Assembly (NCBI GenBank): GCA_964472495.1
Contig: CAYYLD010000001.1
Location: forward strand, 21,294-85,293
DNA: 64,000 nt
Reading direction: 5' to 3'
From: an uncultured Candidatus Saccharibacteria bacterium
GTDB taxonomy: Bacteria; Patescibacteriota; Minisyncoccia; Portnoybacterales; UBA2143
The notes beneath the pieces were generated by a model. The model worked only from the letters and a program-made list of their open reading frames with translations, searched no databases and had not been told where the DNA came from. This document shows positions 3,220 to 52,861 of this stretch, piece after piece (positions within the stretch are counted from its first letter, which is position 1; every line of letters starts with the position of its first letter). The translations under genes and the position numbers were made by a program.

Positions 3220-3741
3220 GTGATTGAAATGGGTAAGCTTAAGGATGTTTTCAAAAAAGGAGCAGGGGTAGTCGGAGATATAGCTAAAGAAGCGGCTGGT
3301 GAAGGAATCGGAAAACAAATAGGAGGCGCGGCAGGAAAAAGGGTCAGCGAACGGGTTTTTGAGGATAAAAGAGGGGAACTGCTAATCGATATCTTGGCAA
3401 TCTCAGAAAATAACGAGCATCTTCTCCGGCGACACAAAAAAGCTTCGGAAAACCATACTGAAAACCGATTTGTCAACCTTCTTTGCAAGATTCCCAAAGA
3501 GCAGCGGAAGGAAACTCTCAAGATACTCAATGGGATGGAAGATTCTCAATTCGAGCAATACTTGGACCTTCTTGAGAACAATCTCTTTACACAATTTTTC
3601 CAACGAATTGGTCATCTTCTCGGAAAAGAATTAAAAGAGCTCGACGAAGGAGCGGCTGCCGGGTTAAGAGAGTTAGCCGCTAAAATAAGGGCAAGCTGCG
3701 AGGAAGGCGGTACGAGACATAAAGGGGGTGATGCGAGATGA
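3220..3741 (+). CDS. hypothetical protein (Gly/Ala-rich N-terminus, helical C-terminus)
   Basis: 173-aa ORF with a good RBS. Its stop overlaps the next start (ATGA). No motif I recognise. GC is visibly higher than in flanking genes. Confidence 0.55.
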   Translation: MIEMGKLKDVFKKGAGVVGDIAKEAAGEGIGKQIGGAAGKRVSERVFEDKRGELLIDILAISENNEHLLRRHKKASENHTENRFVNLLCKIPKEQRKETLKILNGMEDSQFEQYLDLLENNLFTQFFQRIGHLLGKELKELDEGAAAGLRELAAKIRASCEEGGTRHKGGDAR

Positions 3742-4742
3742 AAGAATTTATAAAAGCTTTCTTTGAGGACTTTCTGCCAGCCATCTGGTTGGCCGTCTTC
3801 CAAAAAGGTCCTCAAAAGATGGATAAGTTAGTTAAGTGGGTTAAACCAAGAGCGAAAAAAATCTGGAAGTGCTTTCTAGTCCTAGCGCTCATCCTGATAA
3901 TCATCCCAATCGTAGCAGTGGACTTGGCGCTCCTGTTCAAAGCAGGCTGGATAGCTGCTTTGATTGGAACCCTTCTGGCCTTAATCTTAATGGTGCTTTT
4001 TTTCAAGCCAGTCTATCTGGGCTTAGCTGCGTTGTTGGGAATAACCTGGGAGGTTCTCTACCTGCGGATTAAAGAGGCGCCAAAAACTGGTGTAAGATAC
4101 GGTAAATTATACTTGGATATTGGACTGGGTATTCTGCTCTGGGAGCTAATTATCCTTTCTTATATATCTATTTTTCCTGTCTGGAATAATCCTCAAGCAC
4201 TTCCTGTATTAGCTTTGTTTTCTCTTCTAGCGGGTTTGATGGTTTATGTCTGGAAGTTCGAGAAAATTTTCTTCCGGAAATTCGCTTACAGATTCGTAGT
4301 TTTGGTCTTAATCGTGGAAACACTCAGCTTTTTCTTCCCGTTGACTAGCCAGGCCATCAATAAAAAAATGCCAGTTGTCGATAGAAAGATATCCAATAGC
4401 ATTAAGGCATTCGGCACTTCCCGCGAGCCACCCGTGAAAAAGGATAGCTCTAAAGAACCATCTCGCCGGCTCTCCGGAATCTTCGTTCTGCCCAAGGGCG
4501 TAAAGGTGACTAAGGACATCAATGGACATGAGTATGACTATCTGGAGGGAGAAAGAGGACATTTCCAACAACTCGGCCCAACAGGACAATTTACCGTATT
4601 GAATAAGAAGATATCTTCTCTAGTAATCGATAAGCCAACCTATACAACTGACCCAGCCATCTCTGATGGCCAAGTTAAGCTAATGGCTACCGGCGGAAAG
4701 GATGTGATAGTTGAATTAACAATCCTTCCGCCGTGTTCCTAA
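3738..4742 (+). CDS. hypothetical membrane protein (about 6 TM helices + about 130-aa soluble C-terminal domain)
   Basis: 334-aa ORF translationally coupled to the previous gene. Hydrophobic N-terminal two thirds. No recognisable motif. Confidence 0.55.
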   Translation: MKEFIKAFFEDFLPAIWLAVFQKGPQKMDKLVKWVKPRAKKIWKCFLVLALILIIIPIVAVDLALLFKAGWIAALIGTLLALILMVLFFKPVYLGLAALLGITWEVLYLRIKEAPKTGVRYGKLYLDIGLGILLWELIILSYISIFPVWNNPQALPVLALFSLLAGLMVYVWKFEKIFFRKFAYRFVVLVLIVETLSFFFPLTSQAINKKMPVVDRKISNSIKAFGTSREPPVKKDSSKEPSRRLSGIFVLPKGVKVTKDINGHEYDYLEGERGHFQQLGPTGQFTVLNKKISSLVIDKPTYTTDPAISDGQVKLMATGGKDVIVELTILPPCS

Positions 4743-4749
4743 ACGCCAA

Positions 4750-4794
4750 AAGCCAGGCAAAGCAACAAAAATTGCTTTCCTGGCTTTTTTATTT
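4750..4794. terminator. bidirectional Rho-independent terminator
   Basis: AAAGCCAGGCAAAGCAA-caaaaa-TTGCTTTCCTGGC followed by TTTTTTATTT. Reads as hairpin + U-run on both strands, between convergent genes. Confidence 0.7.
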
Positions 4795-4875: not shown

Positions 4876-5214
4876 TTATAGCATGCTTGTAATAAATTTC
4901 TGCGCTACATAGGCAAAGAGAGCTATGCCTATGCCGACCAAGCCCCAAATCAATGTTTTTCTGGCCTTGCCTAATTTTTCTTCATCACCAGCCGCCGTCA
5001 TCCAAACAAAACCGGCGTAGATAATCATAATGATAGCAATAACCAAAACAATGACTTGGAACCATCCGGCAATGTTTTTAATTATGCCTATTAATTCCGT
5101 CGGGCTTTCCGGGCCGACATTTGTAATTGGCGCCCCGAAGGCCATCGAGACAGCAAAAGCAAAAATAGATAAGGGAAGAAGAATGGAAGAAAAAACTTTT
5201 ATCTTTTTGTTCAC
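4876..5214 (-). CDS. T4SS-pilin-like small membrane protein (paralog 1 of 3)
   Basis: 112 aa: signal peptide, then two hydrophobic helices separated by the charged loop TAAGDEEKLGKARK. This is the architecture of TrbC/VirB2-type conjugative pilins. Confidence 0.45.
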   Translation of the reverse strand: MNKKIKVFSSILLPLSIFAFAVSMAFGAPITNVGPESPTELIGIIKNIAGWFQVIVLVIAIIMIIYAGFVWMTAAGDEEKLGKARKTLIWGLVGIGIALFAYVAQKFITSML

Positions 5215-5246
5215 TAATATTCACCCCCTTTCCTTTAATAATTTAA

Positions 5247-5621
5247 TTAACCAGCTCCAAGAATATTTTTAATCAATTCAATCAAAGCCCGGCTGCTTAT
5301 CAATACAGCCAAACCAATTAAAGACCAGGTCAGGGCTTTCTTGGCTTTGCTCACTTTTTCCTCGTTGCCGGCCGCGGTCATAAATAAAAGAGCGGAATAA
5401 ACAATCATAATTACGGCCACAGACACACCAATATTAACAATCCAGGTAATAATGTCTCCGGCTAAATCGGTAAAGCTGGTGACATTAAGTGGATTAGGCA
5501 CTGAAGTTGGCGAAGCCGCTGGCCAATCTGCTTTAACGACAACCAATGGCAGACTAATCGTCAAAAGAGACAGAATCAAAATAATTGATGAAAGATTTTT
5601 GGGAGAGATATTTCTAAGCAT
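5247..5621 (-). CDS. T4SS-pilin-like small membrane protein (paralog 2 of 3)
   Basis: Same architecture, with loop motif MTAAGNEEKVSKAKK. The track start at 5651 is a non-ATG codon; the first ATG (5621) gives a typical signal peptide MLRNISPKNLSSIILIL. Confidence 0.45.
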   Translation of the reverse strand: MLRNISPKNLSSIILILSLLTISLPLVVVKADWPAASPTSVPNPLNVTSFTDLAGDIITWIVNIGVSVAVIMIVYSALLFMTAAGNEEKVSKAKKALTWSLIGLAVLISSRALIELIKNILGAG

Positions 5622-5641
5622 ATATTTTATAAACAAATCTT

Positions 5642-6076
5642 CTAAGGACAACTAGGGAATACGTTCCAAGCGCCACTGAAGGCTCCGGTAGTCAAAGTTT
5701 TAACTAAAGTGTCAATCAACAGCCAGCCGGTAAAAATGATGACCAAGCCGATAACGGTGTTAGCAAAAATACTTTTGGCCAAAGTAACTCTTCCTTCACT
5801 GCCACCGGAAACAAGGAAGATAATCCCAGCAGCTGCAAATAGAAGAATAGCCGCTGGGATAGCTAAATTAAAACTGATAAAATTGATGATATTGCTGGCC
5901 AAATGCCATAAATCACAGAGATTACATTTCTCACTGGCATCTAGCTGGCCATCACCATTAATATCCCGGCCACAAGGGACTAATGGTTCAGTGATAAAGC
6001 CAGCATAGGCCAAATTAGCGACAAACAATCCTAACAAGAGCAAAGAACCGATTAAAATTTTATGAAAGGTTCCCAT
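5642..6076 (-). CDS. T4SS-pilin-like small membrane protein (paralog 3 of 3, Cys-rich N-terminal segment)
   Basis: 144 aa. Signal peptide, a 4-Cys segment CGRDINGDGQLDASEKCNLCDLWH, then two TM helices with a SGGSEGR loop. Confidence 0.4.
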   Translation of the reverse strand: MGTFHKILIGSLLLLGLFVANLAYAGFITEPLVPCGRDINGDGQLDASEKCNLCDLWHLASNIINFISFNLAIPAAILLFAAAGIIFLVSGGSEGRVTLAKSIFANTVIGLVIIFTGWLLIDTLVKTLTTGAFSGAWNVFPSCP

Positions 6077-6077
6077 G

Positions 6078-7400
6078 TCATTTCATTAAGAGAGTTATTT
6101 GATTAGCCGCCCGATTAACCGCTTCTCTAATCGTCGCCCGGCCTAATACTACTGATTCTATCATATCGGCCAAGTATTGCTCAATAGTCAAGTTATCCAC
6201 CTGATACCAGGAATAAGCGGTCAAGGCCTGCCCGGCGAAAATTCCTAAATCGGGGTCGTCTTTCTGCCAAGTGATTAAATCACGCCGGGCCGTCGGCTTT
6301 TTAGCCAATTCTAAATATTTCTGGGCATTTTCTTTCTCGGTCAACCAAACAATAAATTGCCAGGCCTGGTCAGCGTTCTGGCAATTATGGGAAACAGCCA
6401 AGCCCCAATAATTGGCATAATTAACCTTACTAGTGGCCGCCTTAATTTGGGGCATCGGGGCAATGGCAAAATTTAAATAAGGTGACTTGGCTTGGATAGT
6501 CGGTATTTGATAGGCATAATTAAACATCATCGCCGTCTGGCCCTGAACAAAGGCGTCTAGCGAATAGTCCATCCGCGTATTCCAGGTATAAACTGATTTT
6601 AAAGGGTCAGCGAAGTCAGTATAAAATTCTAAAGCTCTTTGCCCAGGATAAAAACTTTGGCCGTCAAGTTCAACTGACTGGTTAAAGGCAGCGGCTGTTT
6701 TTTCCTGATTGACCATTTGAGCGCCCGACTGAAGCATCAAGAGAGTCAGAATATCAGTTGACCGATTAATATTGCGAGCTGTTCCTAAGGCCGCTCCGGC
6801 CCGGATAATATTATCTCGCTCGTCCTTTATGGTTAAGGCCTCTACGTCGGCCAGAAATTCTTCCCAGGTAGCTGGCGCTTGAGGAATGACAGCGGTATTA
6901 AAAATATCTTGGTTGTAAAAAAGGGTTAGGGTGTCAACGCTTAAGGGTAAGGCGGCAATAGCCCCATCGGAAACAAAATCGTCATAGACAACATCGACAA
7001 AATTTTCCTTTAACTCTTTGAGGGTAATTAACTCTGAAGGAGCGGCCCAAATCTTATCTTCGTAACGAGGCAGCCAAGTATTATGAATCACCAAAATATC
7101 CGGACCGCGACCACTGGCCATTGCTTCTAATAAATCGCTTTCATAAGTCTGGTAAGTCTTTTTGTAATATTTAATTTCTGTTTTGGGAAAAACCTGATTG
7201 AATTCTTCAATTAACGGTTGGAAAATATCCGAATCATCGAAAACGCCCCAAAACTCCAGCTTCACTTCTTTAGCTGGCGGCTCTTTACAGCCAGGCAAGA
7301 CGACGGCTAAACCAAGGAAGATAATCGGCAGGATAATTGTATAAAGAGTAGTAGCTTTGGTCTTAGACACAGTTTTAGCTCTTTTTAAAAACCAGACCAT
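6078..7400 (-). CDS. extracellular solute-binding lipoprotein (ABC-type, family-1-like), orphan
   Basis: 440 aa. Signal peptide with lipobox LPGC. The region LEFWGVFDD...[15 protein letters not shown] is typical of MalE-like substrate-binding proteins. No permease or ATPase genes nearby. Confidence 0.55.
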
Positions 7401-7914
7401 AATGCTGACCGTCCATGGTTAATTCTTTAACTAAAGTCAAACCTTGGCCTTCGACTAATTGACGAGCTTCATCTTTAGAAATAAACCAACCTTCCTTGGG
7501 AGCCAAAGAAGAACCGGCTAACCAATCAATAATGACCAGCTGACCATTCTCTTTCAAAACCCGCTTAGCTTCTTTTAAAATTTCTTCTTTTTTTTGTGAC
7601 TGAAATAAAATATTGGCCAAAACGACCAAATCAACTGACTGGTCGGTTAATTTAGAGCCACCAGACACTTCCAGATTACCACGGATAGTTTCGATATTAG
7701 AAACTTTTTCTATTTCGGCCCGGCTTTTAACTGACTGGAGGGCCTCTTCCAGAACATCCAAGGCATAAACTTTTCCTTGGCTGACCTGCTTGGCTAAGGG
7801 AAGACTGAAATAACCGTGTCCACAGCCAAAATCAGCGATAGTCATATTATCGCGGATATCTAATTGGTCTAAAATTGTCTCTGGCTGGAGAAAACCGCCA
7901 GTTCCCTTAGCCAT
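7375..7914 (-). CDS. class I SAM-dependent methyltransferase
   Basis: Motif [15 protein letters not shown] and a Rossmann-fold pattern. 179 aa. Overlaps neighbouring genes on both sides. Confidence 0.65.
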
Positions 7915-7917
7915 ATT

Positions 7918-10368
7918 TTAGATGCAAGCTATCGAGGCGATTTTATCCCCTCGAGCCATCCTCATTAATTTGACTCCTTGAGTCGTCCGACCCAAAGAGG
8001 GAATGTCTTTAAGTCTAGTCCTAATGACTTGTCCTTTTTGAGAAATGGCAATTAAATCTTCGTGCTCCGGCCTTAAGATCTGACCGGCTATAATTTGACC
8101 GGTCTTGGCTGTCAAGCGGGCTGTTTTAATTCCCAGACCGCCCCGCTTCTGTAGTTTATAATACCGCAAATTGCTCCTTTTGCCAAAACCATTCTCCATG
8201 ACAACTAATAATTTAATCTGGTCTTCCCTTTTTTGGTCATCAAGAGTAACTATCTGCATACCAACTAACTTATCTTCTTTTCTCAAACCAAGCCCCTTAA
8301 CGCCGGTAGCTGTCCGGCCCATTGGTCTGATTTCAGTCTCTTTAAAATGAATACTTTGTCCCTGGGCGGTGATTAAAATAACCTGGTCTTGTCCGGAAGT
8401 AAGTTTAGCCCATTTTAGACTATCTCCCTTTTTCAAATTAATAGCCATTAGGCCATTCCGCCGGACATGACTAAATTCTTCTATCTTAGTTCTTTTGATT
8501 ATACCATTTTCCGTGGCCATAACCAAATATTTAAAGGGCTGACCATTGTTTCCATTTGGTTTAATGGTTACCACGGCCGTAACCCGTTCTTGAGCGGCCA
8601 ATTGTAGAATATTAACAATGGCTTGGCCACGGGCCGTCCGGCTGGTTTCGGGAATCTCATAGGCTTTGGCCTGGAAAACGCGGCCGCGGTCAGTAAAGAA
8701 TAAAATATTATCATGAGTGGAAGAAGATAGGAACCAACCAACAGCATCTTCCTCACGTGGGGTGATACCGAGAATACCTTTGCCGCCTCTTCTTTGAGCT
8801 CGATAAGATTGGGGATTAACTCTTTTAATATAGCCTCCTTGGGTCAGAATAATGACGCAATCTTCTTGAGGAATTAATTCCTCTTCGGTTAACTGACCGA
8901 CCGCCTGCCGATAAACTTTGGTCCGTCGCTCGTCAGCGTATCTTTCCTTTATTTCCCGCAACTCCTTCTTAATCAAGGTCAAAATTTTCTTAGGACTTTT
9001 TAATAAGGTCTCCAATTCTTTAATCAATTCTTTTTTCTCCTTTAATTCGTCCTTAATCTTCCTCTGCTCTAAACCAGCTAAAGCTTGTAACCTCATTTCC
9101 AGAATGGCCGTCGCCTGACGGTCAGTTAATTTAAATTTCTTGATTAAATTCTGATGAGCCGCTTCTCGCGTCTCTGATTTTTTAATTGTTTCAATAACTG
9201 CATCTATTTGATTAAGGGCTTTACTCAAACCAGTCAAAATATGGGCTCTCTCTTTGGCCTGCTTCAATTCAAATTGACTGCGTCGGGTAGTGACCTGCTG
9301 ACGGTGCTTAATGAATTCTTCCAAAAGCCCCTTCAAGGATAAGACTTGCGGCTGTAACCCATTAACTAGAGCGAGCATATTTAAATGGAAAGTTTTTTGT
9401 AAATCAGTTAATTTATACAAGCGATTAAGAATTTTCTGCGGTTGAGCATCGCCCTTTAGTTCAATAACTACCCGGACACCTTCTTTGTCTGATTCGTCGC
9501 GAATATCTTTAATGCCTGGCATTCTTTTGTTTTTAACCAGTTCAGCAATTTTAGCAATCAAATTGGCCTTATTGACTCCGTAAGTCATTTCGGTAATTAA
9601 AATCTGGAACTGGCCGGCTTTCTTCTCAACAATTTCTGTTTTAGCCCGCATGACAATCGGCCCCCGACCGGTGCTATAGGCCTGAATTAGTCCCTGACGG
9701 TCATAAATGGCCCCGCCAGTTGGAAAATCAGGTCCTTTAATAAATTGGAAAAGGTCCTTAACCGTTGCTTGCGGATGGTCAACGAGATAAATAACTCCCT
9801 CAACAACTTCAGCCAAATTATGAGGTGGAATATTAGTGGCCATGCCCACGGCAATCCCCATAACCCCATTTAAAAGTAATTGAGGTAATTTAGCCGGTAG
9901 AACAACCGGCTCCTGACGAGTCCCATCATAATTATCAGCCCAGTTAACCGTTGACTTCTCTATATCAACCAACATTTCTTCAGATATCCTGGCCAACCGC
10001 GATTCGGTATAGCGATAAGCAGCTGCACTATCTCCATCCATCGAGCCGAAATTCCCCTGACCATCAATTAAGGGATAACGCAGGGAAAAATCTTGAGCCA
10101 TCCGGACCAAAGCGTCATAAACAGCCGTATCTCCGTGGGGATGAAATTTTTTTAAGACATCGCCGATTACCCCGGCGCATTTCGAATATTTGCCGCTATG
10201 CCGCAGGCCAGCTTCCCACATGGCATACAAAATACGGCGATGAACTGGCTTGAGTCCATCGCGAACATCGGGCAAAGCCCGGGCGACAATCACGCTCATG
10301 GCATAGTCCAAATAGGACTCTTTCATTTCCTCGGCAATGGCTCTTTTTTTGATGTAACCTATTTCCAT
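7918..10368 (-). CDS. gyrA: DNA gyrase subunit A
   Basis: [24 protein letters not shown] active-site region with C-terminal beta-pinwheel repeats. The ORF extends to 10395; I chose the internal ATG at 10368 to match usual GyrA N-termini, but the start is uncertain. No gyrB adjacent. Confidence 0.9.
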
Positions 10369-10432
10369 TAAATTTAGCCAACAAAGAACAGCCAAGAATA
10401 TTTCTATTCACTATTGGCTGTTAGTTGATTCA

Positions 10433-10798
10433 TTATCTCAAAGGCAATTTGGCCGGTTTAATTGTTTGCCCTCCGAGAGCATCTTCAATTGCTTGAGGAG
10501 TTAACTGGCTTTCTTCTGAAATATTTTCTTCTTCAGGCAAATTATTTTCCTCAAAAAAAGCACCGATACTGGCTCGGAAAATTTCTCCTAAAGAAGGAAT
10601 TTCTTTTTCTACCTCCTTTTTCATCTCTCCCAAGGGCTGGCTGGTCTTCTCGGCCGTGCCGGGCAAAGAATGCTTTAAAGAAATCACCCAAAGGGAGCCA
10701 ATCAAAAACATACAAATAAAGACGGCCAACCATAAAATCTGGAAGCGAATATAGCGCGGTTTCTTTTGAATTTTTTCTAAAAATTCATTTAAAGACAC
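10433..10798 (-). CDS. hypothetical membrane-anchored protein
   Basis: 121-aa ORF with one TM helix and an acidic C-terminal half. No motif. Confidence 0.4.
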   Translation of the reverse strand: MSLNEFLEKIQKKPRYIRFQILWLAVFICMFLIGSLWVISLKHSLPGTAEKTSQPLGEMKKEVEKEIPSLGEIFRASIGAFFEENNLPEEENISEESQLTPQAIEDALGGQTIKPAKLPLR

Positions 10799-14481: not shown

Positions 14482-15741
14482 ATGAAACAAAAAAATCTAA
14501 TCATCAGTTTAATCGTTCTGGTAGCCGTTATTGTTATCGGCGCCTTGTTGTACAAACCAGCTTCGGAAACGCCTCCTCCTGCCCCACCAGTTGATGACAG
14601 CGGAGCGACTGACCAAGGAGTTGCCAGTGTTATTGAAGCTAATAATCAATTTGCCTTAGAGTTCTACCAGCAAATTAAAGATGGGGAAGAAAATATCTTT
14701 TTCTCGCCTTATAGCATCTCGACCGCTTTGGCCATGACTTATGAAGGGGCCCGCGGCCAAACCGCTCAAGAAATGCAGTCAGTTTTCCATTTTCCGGAAG
14801 AGGATAGTATTCGCCGACCGGCCATGGCCAAGATTTACAACCAAATCAACCAAGAAGACAAGGAATACGAACTTTATACGGCTAATGCTTTGTGGGCTCA
14901 AGAAGATTATTCTTTCTTAGACGAGTATATTAATTTGATTGACCAATATTATGGCGGCCGGGTGACCAATCTTGATTTTATTAAGGAAACCGAGAAGTCA
15001 AGGAAGACAATTAATGACTGGGTCGCTCAACAGACCAAAGACAAAATACTTGACTTGATTCCAGCTGGCGTCCTTAATGAACTAACTCGTCTTGTTTTAA
15101 CTAACGCTATTTACTTTAAGGAACAATGGCTAATCCAATTTGATGAAGAGAATACGACCGAGGAAGATTTTAGGGTCAGTCCGGAGAAAACAATTAAGGT
15201 GCCGATGATGAGTTTAACCGATGGAGAAATAGAATTTAATTATCTGGAAACGGAAAAATTACAAATCTTGGAAATGCCCTATGATGGAGAAGAATTATCT
15301 ATGTTGGTTTTGCTCCCTCAAGAGGATAGCTTAGTCACCTTGGAAGAATCGCTCAACCTGGATAATCTTGCCCAATGGCGAGAGATGCTTAGTCAACAGC
15401 CGGTTAACGTCTTTATGCCCAAATTTACTTTTGAGACCAAATATTTCTTGAACCAAGACCTCCAGGAAATGGGCATGCCGACTGCTTTCTCCATGCAGGC
15501 CGATTTTTCCGGCATGGACGGGACCAAAGATCTTTTTATCAGCAAGGTCATCCATCAGGCCTTTATTGAGGTAAATGAAGAAGGAACCGAGGCGGCGGCG
15601 GCCACGGCGGTGGTTATAGAATTAAAATCAGTCGGGCCTTCCGTAGCCGTTTTCCGAGCCGACCATCCTTTCATTTTCTTAATCCAAGACAACCAGTCAG
15701 GCAACATTTTATTTTTAGGCCGGGTAGTTAATCCCAGTTAA
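14482..15741 (+). CDS. serpin (serine protease inhibitor) with N-terminal membrane anchor and Pro-rich linker
   Basis: FFSPYSISTALAMTYEGARGQTAQEM matches the conserved serpin N-terminal core, and the C-terminal FRADHPFIFLIQDNQSGNILFLGRVVNPS matches the serpin signature. A reactive-centre-loop-like EGTEAAAATAVV lies upstream of it. Confidence 0.8.
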   Translation: MKQKNLIISLIVLVAVIVIGALLYKPASETPPPAPPVDDSGATDQGVASVIEANNQFALEFYQQIKDGEENIFFSPYSISTALAMTYEGARGQTAQEMQSVFHFPEEDSIRRPAMAKIYNQINQEDKEYELYTANALWAQEDYSFLDEYINLIDQYYGGRVTNLDFIKETEKSRKTINDWVAQQTKDKILDLIPAGVLNELTRLVLTNAIYFKEQWLIQFDEENTTEEDFRVSPEKTIKVPMMSLTDGEIEFNYLETEKLQILEMPYDGEELSMLVLLPQEDSLVTLEESLNLDNLAQWREMLSQQPVNVFMPKFTFETKYFLNQDLQEMGMPTAFSMQADFSGMDGTKDLFISKVIHQAFIEVNEEGTEAAAATAVVIELKSVGPSVAVFRADHPFIFLIQDNQSGNILFLGRVVNPS

Positions 15742-17246: not shown

Positions 17247-18260
17247 ATGGCTAAAAAACCAACCATTGAAGAAATCAGAAAGTACCTTAACGAGTATGAT
17301 CCACTTGGTCTGAGGGGAGCGTCAATTGACTTAATTGGCGCTCACAACCATATTATTTACCGATTAGCCAGGGCTGGCAAATCCTTTTGTCTGCGGATGA
17401 TAAATCCGGAAAGCTATCGGGCCGGCGAGTGGCTGACTATCCCTGAAGAATTTACTATCCTTCACTACCTGAAACTCACCGGCTTAGGGCCAATACCCTA
17501 TTTTGTTGACCCGGAACGATTCAGACTCCCATTAACTATCCAAGAGTTCGTCTCGGAAATCACCTACTTTAATAATTTGAAGCCGTTCAACGAAGAGCAT
17601 CTGAAGGCAGCCGCCAAGGCGATCGCCTTACTAAACTCCCTAAACATTGACCCGATCAGATTCCCTTTCCGAAAAGGTTTTACCCGCTACTCTTATCTGA
17701 CCAGCTTGGAAACCTGGCGAGAACGCCTGGCGATAATTAAAAAGTCCGAACAGAAAGATATTCTGGAATGGGTAGACAAACTCAAAGAAGTAGTCAAGCA
17801 GGCAAAGCCGATTTTGGAAGGATTTGAACCTCTCTTGAGAGAGAGTGGTTCGCTTTTTAACTTCGACGGCGCTCACTGCGGAAATACTTTTTTGCGAGAA
17901 AAGTCAGGCAAAGTTGTTTTCCTTGACTGGCAGAAAGTAAGCTACGGAGATCCCAGTTTTACCCTGGCCCGCTTCTTAACCTCTATTGGAAAAAAAGGGG
18001 AGATTCCGGACGGAGCTAAAGAGTTGATGATTGAGGCCTATACTCAAACGGCGGCCTATCATAACTTGCTTAATAGTCATCCCAAATTAGCAGTAAATTT
18101 TGAGAAGCTGGTTGACCAGCGCCTCTTTGAACGCCAGATAGCTGACCTCATCTGGGTGGTCTGGGACTATACCAAACAAGTCAAAACCGAACCAGTTGAG
18201 GAAGCAACTAGCGTAGTTGCTCGCTACCAAAGAGTTATCGAGATGCTGAGACAATACTGA
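17247..18260 (+). CDS. phosphotransferase-family kinase (APH/choline-kinase-like fold)
   Basis: Catalytic-loop-like FDGAHCGNTF and the LDWQKVSYGDPSFTLA (DWE..GDP) motif typical of aminoglycoside/choline/homoserine kinase-type phosphotransferases. Strong RBS AAAGGAGGG. Confidence 0.6.
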   Translation: MAKKPTIEEIRKYLNEYDPLGLRGASIDLIGAHNHIIYRLARAGKSFCLRMINPESYRAGEWLTIPEEFTILHYLKLTGLGPIPYFVDPERFRLPLTIQEFVSEITYFNNLKPFNEEHLKAAAKAIALLNSLNIDPIRFPFRKGFTRYSYLTSLETWRERLAIIKKSEQKDILEWVDKLKEVVKQAKPILEGFEPLLRESGSLFNFDGAHCGNTFLREKSGKVVFLDWQKVSYGDPSFTLARFLTSIGKKGEIPDGAKELMIEAYTQTAAYHNLLNSHPKLAVNFEKLVDQRLFERQIADLIWVVWDYTKQVKTEPVEEATSVVARYQRVIEMLRQY

Positions 18261-18287
18261 GACACTCTCAATTTTTTCTGGAAAACA

Positions 18288-18324
18288 AACGGTTGCCGGG
18301 AAACAAACCGACAACCGTTTTTTA
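18288..18324 (+). terminator. Rho-independent terminator
   Basis: AAACGGTTGCCGG-gaaacaaa-CCGACAACCGT with one mismatch, followed by TTTTTTATTT. Confidence 0.65.
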
Positions 18325-18397
18325 TTTGACCCCGCATCAGAGAAATCTCGGGGCGGGGTTTGACCAAAACGCTTAAAAATGGTAATTTAGGCATTAA

Positions 18398-18488
<91 letters not shown>

Positions 18489-27199: not shown

Positions 27200-28876
27200 A
27201 TGAAACTTCAGCATATATGTTTCTCACTATTGATCCTAGCATTGGTTCTGTTTTTGCTTCCGATTGTCGTTGTAGCCGATCCGCCAGGCAGCGCAGTTAA
27301 ATTTGTCATTTTAAAACCAGATGACAGCATAGTTGGCACGCCAGTAACTGTTACTATTGAAGCCCAAAAAAGCAATAATCAGGTTGATACGGATTATCAA
27401 AGCGATGTAACTCTTGTGACCAACGGCTCGGCCACGGGCGCCGGTCTGGTGGACATTGTCAACGGCATAGGCACGATTGAAATCAATGACGAAGTGGCTG
27501 AAACCGTCAATCTTTCGCTTTCTGACACAAAAGAAACCGGACTGGATGTGAGTTCTACCCAAGAGGTTGATTTTGAAGCCGCTGAAGAAGCAGTTTGGAA
27601 TCAAACAGATTTTTGGTTCAGAGATGACGACGGAGACGAGGCTACTGCCAGCGGGTTTGGAGCTGAAAACGTAAGTCAGAATACAAATATTATCAATGTG
27701 CCGCAGGGGACAAACTTGCGTCTGCGTTTTGGCATCAGGGTTACTGGCTTTAGCGGTACCCTTATCCCTTGTCTTGAGTTTAAGCAGGGCGCTGATTGTG
27801 CTACCGGCAATTGGACAGTTATTACTCCAACGAGTGATACTTTTAATCTTTATTTATCAGACAATTTTGATGATGGCGACGCTACCACCAAGCAAATCAC
27901 AAACGGTTCTTTTGTCGCCGGCCAAATTCTGGAGTCAACCAATCCGGCTTCTTCTTTAGACCTGGCTAAGAACAAAAACACGGAATACGAATGGTCAATA
28001 GAAGTTGCCGGGGATGTCCCAGTCAGCACAACTTACAGTTTTAGGGTTAGTAATAATGGGACTGCCTTTGATAACTACGATGTGTGTCCGTCTCTGACGA
28101 CTCAATCGGGGTCAGAACCAGAGCCAGAACCAGAGCCGACTCCATCTGGCGGAAGCAAAGTAAGACCTACCACGGTAACATTTTCCGGAAGAGCTTTTCC
28201 GAACGCCAAAATATTGGTGTTAGATAAAGATGCAAGGTTAAGAAAGGCAATTAGCCAAGATTTTGTAGCTGACGAAGAAGGAAAATTTAGCGTGAGCTTC
28301 ATTGGCATAATGCAAAGTTGGCATAGTTTTGGTCTTTTGATAAAAGACAAAGAAAATCGGACCACTCAGACGAAATTTTTTAATATTGATACTTTGGCCA
28401 ATGACCTGGTGGTAAAAGATATTCTGGTACCACCAACCGTAGGTTTTACTCAAGGGGTAGTTACGCGAGGACGCAACGCCGTCATTGTCGGCTACGCTGC
28501 CCCAGAAAATGACGTTGAAATAGAAATAGGAGATATCAAGAAAGAAATTAAAGCAGAAAAAGATGGTTCATATAAAGCAGAAGTTAATACAGGAATGCTT
28601 GAATTTGACCAGCATAGAGTACGCGTAAAACAAATTGATCCGCAAGAAAAAAGGGAAAGCGATTTTTCAGTAACGAAAACTTTAGTGGTTTCGCGTCTTG
28701 CTTCGCCAAAAACAGATTTGTCCGGCGATGGCCGGGTAGATATTAGAGATTGGAGCATGTTTCTTTCAAGGTGGGAGTCAAAAGACAAAAGTCAGAAAAA
28801 AATAATTGATTTCAACGATGACGGGGAAATAAATATTTCAGATTTTAGTATATTTATTCGTGCTATTAAAAAATAA
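27200..28876 (+). CDS. secreted multidomain protein with C-terminal dockerin (type-I-like) module
   Basis: Signal peptide, an EPEPEPEPTP linker, and a C-terminal duplicated Ca-binding segment DLSGDGRVDIRDWSMF / DFNDDGEINISDFSIF that matches the dockerin DxDxDGxVxxxD pattern. Confidence 0.65.
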   Translation: MKLQHICFSLLILALVLFLLPIVVVADPPGSAVKFVILKPDDSIVGTPVTVTIEAQKSNNQVDTDYQSDVTLVTNGSATGAGLVDIVNGIGTIEINDEVAETVNLSLSDTKETGLDVSSTQEVDFEAAEEAVWNQTDFWFRDDDGDEATASGFGAENVSQNTNIINVPQGTNLRLRFGIRVTGFSGTLIPCLEFKQGADCATGNWTVITPTSDTFNLYLSDNFDDGDATTKQITNGSFVAGQILESTNPASSLDLAKNKNTEYEWSIEVAGDVPVSTTYSFRVSNNGTAFDNYDVCPSLTTQSGSEPEPEPEPTPSGGSKVRPTTVTFSGRAFPNAKILVLDKDARLRKAISQDFVADEEGKFSVSFIGIMQSWHSFGLLIKDKENRTTQTKFFNIDTLANDLVVKDILVPPTVGFTQGVVTRGRNAVIVGYAAPENDVEIEIGDIKKEIKAEKDGSYKAEVNTGMLEFDQHRVRVKQIDPQEKRESDFSVTKTLVVSRLASPKTDLSGDGRVDIRDWSMFLSRWESKDKSQKKIIDFNDDGEINISDFSIFIRAIKK

Positions 28877-28885
28877 AATGAAAAA

Positions 28886-30622
28886 ATGAAATATCAATTT
28901 AAAACAATTATAGCCATATTGGCTGGGGTCATTGCTTGGGGTATTTTTTCTTCGGCGCAGGCCGCTACACTTTCTTTAACACCTATTAGTTCCGAGATTG
29001 GAATCGGAGAAAAAATGACGATTGAGATTAGGATTGATAGCGAAGGGGAAAGCTTTAACGCAGCCCAGGCAGTAATTCGTTTCCCTAAAGATACGCTTGA
29101 GGTGACTGCATTAGACAAAGCAGAATCCGTATTCAGCTTTTGGCTTGAAGAGCCAAATTTTTCAAATACGGACGGAGTTGTATCATTTATCGGCGGCACA
29201 CCGTCCGGAGTTTCCGGGGGCGCTGTCAGAGTTCTGAAGATAGAATTTCTGGCCAAAGGAACTGGTAGCGGGACACTTTCTTTTGTAGAAGCCGCTGTCA
29301 CGGCGGCTGACGGAAGCGGAACCAATATACTATCAGAGATAAATGATGCAGTGATTATGGTAGTCCCTCAAAGAGTTATTCCAAAAGTTCCAGAATCCCA
29401 GCAAAAAATTCCGGAGCCCGAACAAATTGTCCGGAAACCCGCGCCTTCAGAGAAATTGCCTTCAAGCCCCGTTCTTAAAATTTCACTCTATCCTGAAGAA
29501 ACCCGTTGGTATAATCTGGTGGCGCAGTTTACGGTAAGTTGGGATTTACCGCTTGATATTTCTGGCGTGAGCACGGCGCTCAACAAATACCCAAACTCTA
29601 TCCCGCCCGGACGATCCGAAGGACTTTTTGATAATAAAAGCTTCGCGGCGCTCGGAGACGGCATTTGGTACCTTCATGTTCGTTTTCAAAACAATCTTGG
29701 CTGGGGACCGACTGCGCATCACCGTTTGGCCGTTGATACCCAACCCCCACTTGGTTTTGAGCTTACCGTCGTTGAAGGCGAGGCGACTGATAATCCAACC
29801 CCTACGTTTCAATTCAAGACCAGCGACGCTCTCTCTGGTCTTCGAGAGTACCAGGTAAGAATTGGCGACGGAGATCTGATAAAAATTCCCGCAGCGGAGT
29901 TTAATGGGAGCTTTAAGTTACCATTGCAATCGCCGGGTAAGCGGCGGATTACCGTAAAAGCGGTTGATCAGGCCGATAATGGCATTGAAGATGACGTAAT
30001 GCTGGAAACTATTCCTATTGCGTCACCGACCATAAGTTTTGTTACCAGGGAATTATTCTCTGATGAGGAAAGAGGCTTAACTATCAAAGGAACGGCCTTG
30101 CCGGGTGTTAATATGCTGCTGGCTGTTCTTCGGCAAGGCGCGCTTGTTGCTGAAAGCACAATTCGCGCTGATGAAAAAGGCAACTGGGAATTTACTTTTG
30201 ACCAGCCTTTTAGGAATGGACGGTATATTTTAACTGCCCAGAGTCAAGATGAGCGAGGCGCCTTGAGCTTAACAGTGGAATCTCCAGAAGTGCGGGTCAA
30301 AAGCAAGCCGATTATCCAGATTGGGTTTATCCAGCTGGGGAAAGGCGGCGCGGCCCTGCTCTTGCTTTTCATACTGATAGTAGGGTTTGGCACAGGAGCT
30401 TGGTTTTATAAAAAACGGCAGGAGAAATTAGCCCTGCGACTTTTGGTTGTTAAAACCGACATGGCCAAGGTCTTTAAACTTATTCAGGACGATATAGAAA
30501 AATTACAAAAAGCCATTGGAACTCCAATCGAGGCGGACGACGAATTTATGATGAAAAGACTGCAGGAAAATATCAAGAAAATGGAAGGATATCTCAAAAA
30601 AGAAATAGAGAAATTAGAATAG
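28886..30622 (+). CDS. cohesin-domain-like surface protein, C-terminal TM anchor and cytoplasmic coiled coil
   Basis: Signal peptide. An N-terminal beta-rich module (ATLSLTPISSEIGIGEKMTIEIRID...AQAVIRFPKDTLEV...VRVLKIEFLAKGTGSGTLSF) resembles cohesin domains. Pro-rich linker, further Ig-like modules, TM helix AALLLLFILIVGFGTGAW, then KR-rich coiled coil. Confidence 0.5.
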   Translation: MKYQFKTIIAILAGVIAWGIFSSAQAATLSLTPISSEIGIGEKMTIEIRIDSEGESFNAAQAVIRFPKDTLEVTALDKAESVFSFWLEEPNFSNTDGVVSFIGGTPSGVSGGAVRVLKIEFLAKGTGSGTLSFVEAAVTAADGSGTNILSEINDAVIMVVPQRVIPKVPESQQKIPEPEQIVRKPAPSEKLPSSPVLKISLYPEETRWYNLVAQFTVSWDLPLDISGVSTALNKYPNSIPPGRSEGLFDNKSFAALGDGIWYLHVRFQNNLGWGPTAHHRLAVDTQPPLGFELTVVEGEATDNPTPTFQFKTSDALSGLREYQVRIGDGDLIKIPAAEFNGSFKLPLQSPGKRRITVKAVDQADNGIEDDVMLETIPIASPTISFVTRELFSDEERGLTIKGTALPGVNMLLAVLRQGALVAESTIRADEKGNWEFTFDQPFRNGRYILTAQSQDERGALSLTVESPEVRVKSKPIIQIGFIQLGKGGAALLLLFILIVGFGTGAWFYKKRQEKLALRLLVVKTDMAKVFKLIQDDIEKLQKAIGTPIEADDEFMMKRLQENIKKMEGYLKKEIEKLE

Positions 30623-52324: not shown

Positions 52325-52861
52325 TTAAAAAACGGTTAATTGGTCAAAAGGCCAAGCCCGTAACCAAACCCGGCCGATAATATTCTCTTTATTTAGGATG
52401 CCCCATTGACGAGAATCGGAGCTGGCTGAACGATTATCTCCCAAAACGAAATATTCATCCGAACCCAATTCTATTTTGGTTTTGCCCCAAGTGATAACGC
52501 CAGCGACCAAATAATTAGATTCATCTAATATTTTTCCCTGCGGCTCAGCCTGATTGTAGATAATAACCTGACCATCCCTTATCTCGACTGTTTCGCCTGG
52601 TAAGCCGACGATTCTTTTAATATAATACTGGGAAGGGTCTAAGGGATATCTAAAAACGACCACTTCGCCTCGCTGCGGTTCGCCTAATCGATAGCTAATT
52701 TCGTCAACGACCAGATACTGACCATTATCAAAATTAGGTGTCATTGAAGCGCCGCGAACAAAAAATGGTTGAATTAAAAAATAGCGGACCGGGATGATAA
52801 TAGCCAAAGAGATACTGACTATCTTGACTATCTCCCAAATAAAAAGAATTATCTTTCTCAT
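52325..52861 (-). CDS. lepB: signal peptidase I
   Basis: VRGASMTPNF (catalytic Ser box), KRIVGLPGE, VLGDNRSASSDSR. 178 aa. Confidence 0.85.
   Translation of the reverse strand: MRKIILFIWEIVKIVSISLAIIIPVRYFLIQPFFVRGASMTPNFDNGQYLVVDEISYRLGEPQRGEVVVFRYPLDPSQYYIKRIVGLPGETVEIRDGQVIIYNQAEPQGKILDESNYLVAGVITWGKTKIELGSDEYFVLGDNRSASSDSRQWGILNKENIIGRVWLRAWPFDQLTVF

Follow-up and report, generated by a model that had tools for sequence, protein, structure and literature searches.

A tandem array of VirB2/TrbC-like pilin genes in a conserved gyrA-linked operon of a Portnoybacteria-related bacterium

The 64,000-nucleotide stretch of contig CAYYLD010000001.1 analysed in this work (hereafter, the window) contains three consecutive small genes that a previous sequence-only reading had compared to the pilins of type IV secretion systems (T4SSs). 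The locus raises the question of what these proteins are and which machinery they might serve. The three proteins, named g1, g2 and g3, belong to the VirB2/TrbC-like T4SS_pilin family (PF18895), and their genes represent an old, vertically inherited operon made up of position-specific orthologs, i.e., neither the outcome of a recent duplication nor mobile DNA. As for their role, they are probably prepilins exported through the Sec pathway, from which a T4SS encoded at another locus would build a surface filament or a channel extension.

Three tandem paralogous genes

The genes are transcribed from the minus strand in the order g3, g2, g1 and are located as follows:

5642..6076, minus strand: g3, first pilin of the array, 144 amino acids (aa), ATG start (open reading frame (ORF) listing)
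5247..5621, minus strand: g2, second pilin of the array, 124 aa, ATG at 5621 (the form used by public gene calls)
4876..5214, minus strand: g1, third pilin of the array, 112 aa, GTG start (ORF listing)

The ORF listing agrees with the three consecutive minus-strand genes of 112, about 124 and 144 aa that had been described from the sequence alone. In the same listing, the ORF of g2 reaches upstream to a TTG at 5651 (5247..5651), which gives a product of 134 aa, and a strong ribosome-binding site (the Shine-Dalgarno sequence AAAGGAAAGGGGG) is located ahead of the GTG of g1. The spacers within the array are 20 nt (g3-g2) and 32 nt (g2-g1) long.

The layout that had been proposed for all three proteins, consisting of a signal peptide, a variable segment and two helices joined by a charged loop, was seen both by hydropathy heuristics and in the AlphaFold2 models of g3 and g1. 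In the hydropathy scan, each pilin shows one N-terminal signal-like segment and two transmembrane (TM)-like segments; the signal-peptide assignment is a heuristic one, based on hydropathy and on AXA-site rules, and the candidate AXA-type cleavage sites are AYA/G in g3 (after residue 25), VKA/D in g2 and AFG/A in g1. A variable N-terminal segment precedes the hairpin, and in the ortholog profiles the mature N-terminal segments are the most variable regions. AlphaFold2 models a helical hairpin for g3 (H53-89/H94-130, pLDDT 75.5) as well as for g1 (H38-73/H78-111, pLDDT 81), with pLDDT values of 86-95 in the hairpin cores of the two models. The loop peptides quoted in the sequence-only reading were all located in the translations, namely MTAAGDEEKLGKARK in g1, MTAAGNEEKVSKAKK in g2, and SGGSEGRVT; the Cys residues that it had reported in the N-terminal segment of its third copy are also present, g3 having four Cys overall and g1 and g2 none.

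Pairwise identity is 33 % between g1 and g2, 19 % between g1 and g3, and 25 % over 104 residues between g2 and g3 (BLASTP E = 2e-9). When the target sequence was left out of the profile, g3 matched the g1/g2 profile with 42.5 bits, while g2 and g1 matched the g3 profile with 44 and 25 bits, respectively. Since this cross-profile detection works both ways, the paralogy of the three genes is real and goes beyond a shared hydrophobic composition. No further match to the pilin profiles was found among the other ORFs of the window.

Assignment to the T4SS_pilin family

Two Pfam families had been indicated for a profile-HMM (hidden Markov model) search, and the outcome was different for each of them. 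The gathering cutoff of PF18895 (T4SS_pilin, 26.6 bits) is passed by all three proteins, with scores of 42.7 bits for g1 (E = 6e-11), 49.4 bits for g2 (E = 5e-13) and 28.2 bits for g3, and public proteins identical to the pilins carry precomputed PF18895 matches. The cutoff of PF04956 (TrbC/VirB2, 27.9 bits) is reached by none of them: g1 scores 25.3 bits (E = 1.7e-5), g3 scores 17.7 bits and g2 has no match to this model. PF04956 is the next best family after PF18895 for g1 and g3, g1 being the most TrbC/VirB2-like copy, and the g1 orthologs of three related loci (L010-L012) have unmarked TrbC matches (E <= 1e-5); on sequence grounds, a relationship to TrbC/VirB2 is evident even though the window proteins miss the cutoff. 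A third model, NF045849 ('pilin-like conjugal transfer protein', cutoff 40 bits), matches g1 (38.8 bits) and g2 (32.0 bits) below its cutoff, with alignments spanning nearly the full 80 positions of the model, and does not match g3.

Comparisons with the VirB2 of Agrobacterium tumefaciens (whose query sequence was checked against PDB 8cue) and with solved T-pili (8exh, 8cue, 8fai) gave weak signals. In hhalign, the g1/g2 profile aligns with it over both helices (60 columns, E = 7.6e-4, probability just 25 %), and the top Foldseek match of the g3 model in the PDB is a VirB2 chain of the T-pilus (8exh_A, 27 % identity), a weak match (E = 0.42).

The PF18895 E-values of g1 and g2 and the reciprocal cross-profile matches between the g3 and g1/g2 families make it extremely unlikely that the pilin matches are compositional false positives, as might be obtained with small hydrophobic proteins. 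The same is indicated by a conserved motif that is not hydrophobic, M-T-A-A-G-x-E-E-K...K-A-(K/R)-K, which is kept together with a W, and by the g3 profile: among 1.84 billion cluster representatives it matches 25,546 with a limit of E <= 0.001, as befits a very large family, and still 5,550 when the limit is set to E <= 1e-10. In favour of false positives one may cite the non-specificity of the fold searches, the lack of a link to solved pilins in HMMER and the score of g3, which exceeds the Pfam cutoff by just 1.6 bits.

The gyrA-linked operon and its surroundings

The three genes are the last ones of a tight, co-directional string (gyrA, methyltransferase, binding protein, g3, g2, g1), whose other elements are:

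7918..10395, minus strand: gyrA, which heads the string (DNA_topoisoIV and DNA_gyraseA_C in the public annotation of the identical locus)
7375..7914, minus strand: S-adenosylmethionine-dependent methyltransferase (Methyltransf_31, 75.7 bits), overlapping the start of the binding-protein gene
6078..7400, minus strand: orphan ABC-type solute-binding protein (SBP), 440 aa (SBP_bac_1, 122.6 bits)
4752..4784, no strand assigned: GC-rich hairpin between g1 and the convergent ORF 3738..4742 (-26.5 kcal/mol, z = -5.0 vs shuffles)

The stop codon of gyrA lies 3 nt ahead of the methyltransferase start, and the ATG of g3 lies 1 nt past the stop codon of the binding-protein gene; the binding protein and g3 are probably translationally coupled. 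The N-terminus of the binding protein carries a single hydrophobic TM/lipoprotein-like signal ending in LPGC, and no ABC permease or ATPase is present among its Pfam-annotated neighbours, either at the window locus or in the relatives L010-L012. A simple promoter scan gave only weak matches within the gyrA-to-g1 string, and the whole string is presumably co-transcribed from gyrA, which would result in a constitutive expression of the pilins. The hairpin at 4752..4784, which is followed by a U-run on both strands, was missed by a simple terminator scanner because its stem has a bulge; it is probably a bidirectional intrinsic terminator closing the pilin operon.

Two plus-strand ORFs are convergent with g1, i.e., 3738-4742 (334 aa, about five TM segments) and 3220-3741 (173 aa), both without a Pfam match. 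Their presence beside the operon is sporadic, with counterparts at 29 % identity in L011/L023 and at 39 % and 35 % in L038. The larger one was considered as a divergent VirB6, a reading that is not supported: apart from the lack of a Pfam match, its NCBIfam similarity, to a membrane family of Mycoplasma, is weak, and among the related loci it is seen only in L011/L023 and L038. As far as gyrA is concerned, the copy at L011 (4114-8157, GCA_964403725.1) encodes a GyrA of 1,347 aa whose DNA_topoisoIV domain harbours an intein (Intein_splicing); the window GyrA has no intein.

The neighbourhood is chromosomal housekeeping DNA of a small-genome bacterium. The window has a GC content of 40-44 % throughout and 15 tRNA genes; its Pfam annotation includes VanW, PAP2, FtsH, a serpin, IF-2, NrdD, ComEC, RtcB, HisRS, TopA and RelA, while GyrA, DprA and ParA/ParB were identified through public gene calls on identical contigs and FtsZ and FtsA were identified by visual inspection of the translated sequences. 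The host is a Portnoybacteria-related member of the class Paceibacteria (Patescibacteria/candidate phyla radiation, CPR). Many of the metagenome-assembled genome (MAG) records of L017-L037 are labelled 'uncultured Candidatus Saccharibacteria bacterium'; synteny and named homologs point to Portnoybacteria/Paceibacteria, and the label looks like a generic taxonomic one.

Since the names T4SS_pilin, TrbC and 'pilin-like conjugal transfer protein' come from conjugation, the array might be taken for the cargo of a mobile element, either conjugative or integrative, with the pilins as transfer remnants of a plasmid or of an integrative and conjugative element (ICE). Context and synteny essentially refute such an origin, whose probability is practically negligible: the array is flanked by gyrA, ftsH, tRNA synthetases and cell-wall genes, its GC content equals that of the surroundings, no relaxase, integrase, type IV coupling protein (T4CP) or VirB4 was found among the annotated genes of the window and of 10 kb at each end, and the same position in 20 species implies vertical inheritance.

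Conservation of the operon among relatives

A scan of one genome per species yielded 33 loci. Since the best of them is only 73 % identical, the window's own species is not among the representatives. For g3, 96 homologs were found, mostly with 55-80 % identity and several of them named Candidatus Portnoybacteria by NCBI; for g2, there are just 27, with identity dropping fast to 35-50 %. The same gene order is shared by 20 species-level genomes and comprises FtsH (on the opposite strand), a metallo-hydrolase, a small ORF, GyrA, the methyltransferase, the binding protein, a g3-type pilin and two or more further pilins; partial versions of the gyrA-pilin order exist on a few shorter contigs. The array mostly contains three genes, with a range of one to five among the relatives (L037 has five). 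Orthologs specific to each array position are present in many species, and the window array is therefore not a recent amplification.

The orphan SBP gene is located directly upstream of the first pilin gene in 21 species-level genomes (L017-L042), and the distance from its stop to the pilin start is between -4 and +9 nt in 16 of them. In the Azambacteria-type loci L041, L044 and L046, the gyrA-methyltransferase-binding-protein block is inverted and this adjacency is lost, and in some relatives a solitary g3 ortholog occurs without the binding protein (in L007 it lies between dnaE and ligA). Because of these two arrangements, the adjacency of SBP and pilin may reflect general synteny.

The array positions differ markedly in their rate of change. 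Mean ortholog identity over the 20 species is 57 % for g3 and 41 % for both g2 and g1, against averages of about 67 % in the case of the binding protein and about 70 % in that of GyrA. When the window is compared with the nearest representative (L017), identity is 84 % for GyrA, 87 % for the methyltransferase, 79 % for the binding protein and 73 % for g3, and falls to 40 % for g2 and 35 % for g1. Hence g2 and g1 evolve much faster than the neighbouring genes, and the comparison with L017 can be explained either by a very fast divergence or by a replacement of the two distal pilins.

These figures also bear on the hypothesis that the proteins are T4SS parts other than pilus subunits, i.e., that they form only a short stub or line the membrane-proximal channel in a monoderm T4SS, or that they act as assembly factors, with the paralogs occupying distinct structural positions. 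The presence of own orthologs for each array position over 20 species is expected of non-interchangeable parts, and g3 is far more constrained than g2 and g1; moreover, the patescibacterial VirB4 clade has its origin in the Gram-positive-type (MPF-FATA) T4SSs, and these are normally without pili (PMC12102498, PMC10633639). However, the 35-40 % identity of g2 and g1 where GyrA reaches 84 % fits exposed surfaces better than a buried channel, and the array size varies from one to five among the relatives. A non-pilus role is regarded as possible, if unlikely, and a role as pilus or channel-extension subunits is preferred.

In more distant relatives, fused genes of the same operon encode two complete pilin modules per ORF (201-281 aa), located at 10426-11118 in L038, at 2775-3527 in L040 and at 9842-10687 and 10693-11298 in L042. 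Giant proteins of 1,064 to more than 2,365 aa were also observed, in which a signal peptide and a full pilin-like two-helix module are followed by a long extracellular region rich in Cys, Gly, Ser and Thr (9854-14836 in L047, 3535-6729 and 6811-13906 in L048, with P0128, P0129 and P0251 listed alongside), and the database contains serial proteins with 7-10 pilin modules, such as P0251 (966 aa, 10 matched stretches). These giant and serial proteins may be pilus-borne adhesins or polypilins.

The cysteine pattern of g3

The four Cys of g3 are residues 35, 51, 54 and 143. The residues that are invariant across 28 aligned sequences are V33, P34, C35, C51, C54, W57, W137, P141 and C143, which form three motifs: V-P-C35; C51-x-L-C54-x-L-W, ahead of helix 1; and the tail W-N-x-F-P-x-C143 (WNvFPsCP in the window). 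Variability within the g3 family is highest between C35 and C51 (33 % identity). Of 147 further representatives of 50 % clusters, those that score best against the g3 profile, 24 have the Cys motif. The pattern suggests that disulfides might tie the N- and C-terminal tails of this subfamily.

Two other readings of this region were rejected. The insert DINGDGQLDASE (5927-5971), between the first two Cys, was evaluated as an EF-hand/dockerin Ca-binding loop; it is no family feature, because it lies in the most variable insert, is present in only 2 of the 28 aligned g3-family sequences and has no Dockerin or EF-hand Pfam match. The consensus CTLCH might recall a CXXCH haem c site, but its His varies within the family, and g3 of the window has CNLCD instead.

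Comparison with published arrays and with known pilins

Tandem arrays of divergent VirB2-like pilins have already been published for Patescibacteria, and the window array is an ordinary example of them. In a search of 3,035 patescibacterial genomes with PF18895, PF04956 and CONJScan profiles (Quinonero-Coronel 2025, Microb Genom, PMC12102498), VirB4 was found in 2,417 genomes and VirB2-like pilins in 1,948 of the VirB4-positive ones, near virB4 in 1,135 of these; about 40 % of the pilin genes are unlinked to virB4. The same work reported 441 pilin arrays of 2-11 genes, with a mean identity of 25 % and a maximum of 54 %, which are most abundant in Microgenomatia and Saccharimonadia, and placed the virB4 of Paceibacteria usually near dnaA/dnaN (PMC12102498). 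In Ca. Southlakia epibionticum, the pilin series within the T4SS cluster is essential according to transposon sequencing (Tn-seq; Wang 2023, Cell, PMC10633639), and a 2025 review attributes potential pili, among the T4SSs of monoderms, to the patescibacterial ones only (PMC12857230). The functional options that the sequence-only reading had offered, i.e., a T4SS located elsewhere or filaments for the attachment of an episymbiont, are in line with this published view (PMC12102498, PMC10633639, PMC12857230).

With three adjacent PF18895 genes of 19-33 % identity, the window array corresponds to what has been defined as an array in PMC12102498, namely at least two strongly diverged PF18895/PF04956 genes that are in tandem or have a single gene between them. 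It shares with the published ones the detection by PF18895/PF04956, the tandem arrangement, the chromosomal location, the absence of a relaxase and the monoderm CPR host, and its internal identity fits the mean and maximum reported (PMC12102498). It differs from them in being embedded in a housekeeping operon with gyrA, the methyltransferase and the orphan SBP, in belonging to Paceibacteria and in having a first member with four invariant Cys. In particular, the six-pilin array of Southlakia ML1 lies inside the T4SS cluster SEML1_0006-0019, whereas the window array is separated from any T4SS gene by at least 15 kb on one side and 68 kb on the other.

The long signal peptide, the two hydrophobic helices, the short basic loop and the small size are shared with VirB2 of A. 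tumefaciens and TrbC of RP4. The loop of the window pilins is, however, about 8 residues longer than that of VirB2, and those Gram-negative systems contrast with a monoderm host and with an array near which no TraF-like cyclase or VirB machinery is present. VirB2 and TrbC cyclise head-to-tail; the conserved Cys at both ends of g3 could be a disulfide-based equivalent. The VirB2 arrays of Bartonella and Anaplasma phagocytophilum (cited in PMC12102498) are likewise tandem and strongly diverged and have been read as exposed host-contact variation, but they belong to virB loci of Gram-negative intracellular animal pathogens, while the paralog positions of the window array are old and have their own orthologs. 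The Mbov_0395/MMCAP2_0565 family of Mycoplasma ICEs (NF045849) is similar in consisting of small two-helix membrane proteins from a wall-less or monoderm lineage; it differs in that the window setting is no ICE, g1 and g2 fall under the cutoff and g3 has no match.

Which machinery might the pilins serve?

The sequence-only reading had found no VirB4, VirB6 or VirD4 gene in the window, and this was borne out: every ORF of at least 415 aa could be assigned to a housekeeping or surface protein (by Pfam, by public gene calls and, for FtsA, by eye), no recognisable VirB6 is present in the window, and Pfam shows no T4SS domain in the remaining window ORFs, i.e., those whose function is not evident. 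A T4SS located just outside the window near parAB was considered as well and rejected, the next 10 kb being occupied by tRNA synthetases, TatD, an M16 peptidase and similar genes; HSP20, PrsW, LeuRS and RmlD are found in the 10 kb past the other end.

A number of observations weigh against assembly by a T4SS encoded elsewhere. A tight coupling to a solute-binding protein is not known as a feature of T4SSs. No VirB4, VirD4 or other T4SS component was detected in the 64-kb window (Pfam; ORFs of at least 415 aa), nor any T4SS component within 10 kb past either window end on identical public metagenome contigs, and no recognisable T4SS ATPase occurs near the array in about 38 related pilin loci (+-10 kb). 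In these loci, the ORFs of at least 350 aa with a Walker-A motif are FtsH, ClpB, a GTPase and a chance match in an amidase; the list holds one more large ORF, with g1 as its best window match, which was left unexamined. No pilin was retrieved by HMMER from the full set of PDB chains, whether with g1 or with the g1/g2 and g3 profiles, and the fold searches are non-discriminating, yielding thousands of generic helical hairpins (and, for the g1 model, only such hairpins). Visualisation of a filament consisting of PF18895 proteins is not reported for any organism in the published work consulted (PMC12102498, PMC10633639, PMC12857230). Finally, no VirB4 is listed for 5 of 11 draft Portnoybacteria assemblies read from Table S1 of PMC12102498. 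The other 6 of the 11 entries have VirB4; among the entries scored as VirB4-positive in that table is GCA_001819555.1 (RIFCSPHIGHO2_02_FULL_39_12, Ca. Portnoybacteria), whose contig MHMZ01000005 (L038) carries the orthologous operon.

Some of these observations would also be accounted for by a T4SS-independent role of the pilins together with the solute-binding lipoprotein, in which the two-helix proteins would remain in or on the membrane, for example as its anchor or scaffold or as a simple uptake/attachment module. Such a partnership would agree with the close spacing of the two genes (-4 to +9 nt in 16 of 21 genomes), with the lack of an ABC permease or ATPase beside the binding protein, with the lack of a recognised T4SS ATPase within 10 kb in the related loci and with the 5 of 11 Portnoybacteria drafts in which Table S1 gives no detected VirB4 (PMC12102498). 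Yet, the inversion in the Azambacteria-type loci L041, L044 and L046 separates the pilin from the binding protein, solitary g3 orthologs exist between dnaE and ligA without it, and sequence homology points to VirB2/TrbC; besides, a lack of linkage to virB4 is in any case seen for about 40 % of the pilin genes of Patescibacteria (PMC12102498), and the absence of VirB4 from draft MAGs can be due to incompleteness. On the whole, a partnership of this kind is considered quite unlikely, and assembly by a T4SS encoded elsewhere remains the preferred explanation.

For processing, polymerisation, T4SS dependence and host contact, the preferred explanation draws on homology and on what was found in Southlakia. 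According to it, the leaders of the pilins would be removed by signal peptidase I, and the mature proteins, of 85-120 residues, would reside in the membrane as hairpins of two helices whose short basic loop faces the cytoplasm. Their extraction and polymerisation into a surface filament or channel extension would then be carried out by a VirB4-driven T4SS of the monoderm type, encoded elsewhere, and this structure would serve the contact with the host cell. Within it, g3 would represent a conserved core subunit, its N- and C-terminal tails probably being tied by disulfides, and g2 and g1 would be variable exposed subunits; the varying exposed N-terminal segments and the fast evolution of g2 and g1 are consistent with an adaptation to host surfaces. 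A candidate LepB-like ORF (52325..52861) was recognised in the window, by eye only.

A more far-reaching hypothesis, which we regard as very unlikely, is that the gyrA-linked operon is a distinct, T4SS-unlinked surface module of Paceibacteria, in which g3 is a disulfide-stapled, pseudo-cyclic pilin, the SBP is a filament-associated receptor or adhesin, and g2 and g1 set host specificity. If this were true, the Cys located before helix 1 would bond the C-terminal Cys, mimicking the head-to-tail cyclisation of T-pilin and TrbC, and the coupled SBP lipoprotein would stand in for the VirB5 tip protein, which is missing, and would thereby connect attachment to the host with the capture of nutrients.

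Other features of the window

Two adjacent plus-strand genes (27200-28876 and 28886-30622) encode large proteins that are candidate surface/adhesion proteins; one of the two has a C-terminal Dockerin_1 domain, the other below-cutoff Ig-like matches (Big_13/Big_6). A full-length serpin (417 bits) is encoded at 14482-15741 (plus strand) between tRNA genes, in a reduced genome, and it is kept at the same place in identical metagenome contigs. Lastly, the ARAGORN tmRNA call at 17997-18487 (plus strand, 491 nt) is probably false or mis-bounded; it overlaps the 3' end of an APH phosphotransferase ORF (17247..18260) and contains a tRNA-Ser (18398..18487).

Significance

The locus adds nothing categorically new. 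Three leads go beyond the published accounts (PMC12102498, PMC10633639, PMC12857230): a conserved gyrA/SBP-linked operon without T4SS linkage, a four-Cys g3 subfamily with a possible disulfide stapling of the two tails, and a marked difference in rate between the array positions.

The T4SS with its pilin array is one of the few machineries that a cultivated patescibacterium has been shown to require for its epibiotic life. In Portnoybacteria-like Paceibacteria, the pilin genes form a stable, vertically inherited housekeeping operon apart from the secretion ATPase, with one constrained Cys-bearing subunit, two rapidly diverging ones and a persistent coupling to a solute-binding lipoprotein. A candidate core subunit, variable subunits and a candidate partner protein are thereby provided as handles for studies on filament assembly and host range.

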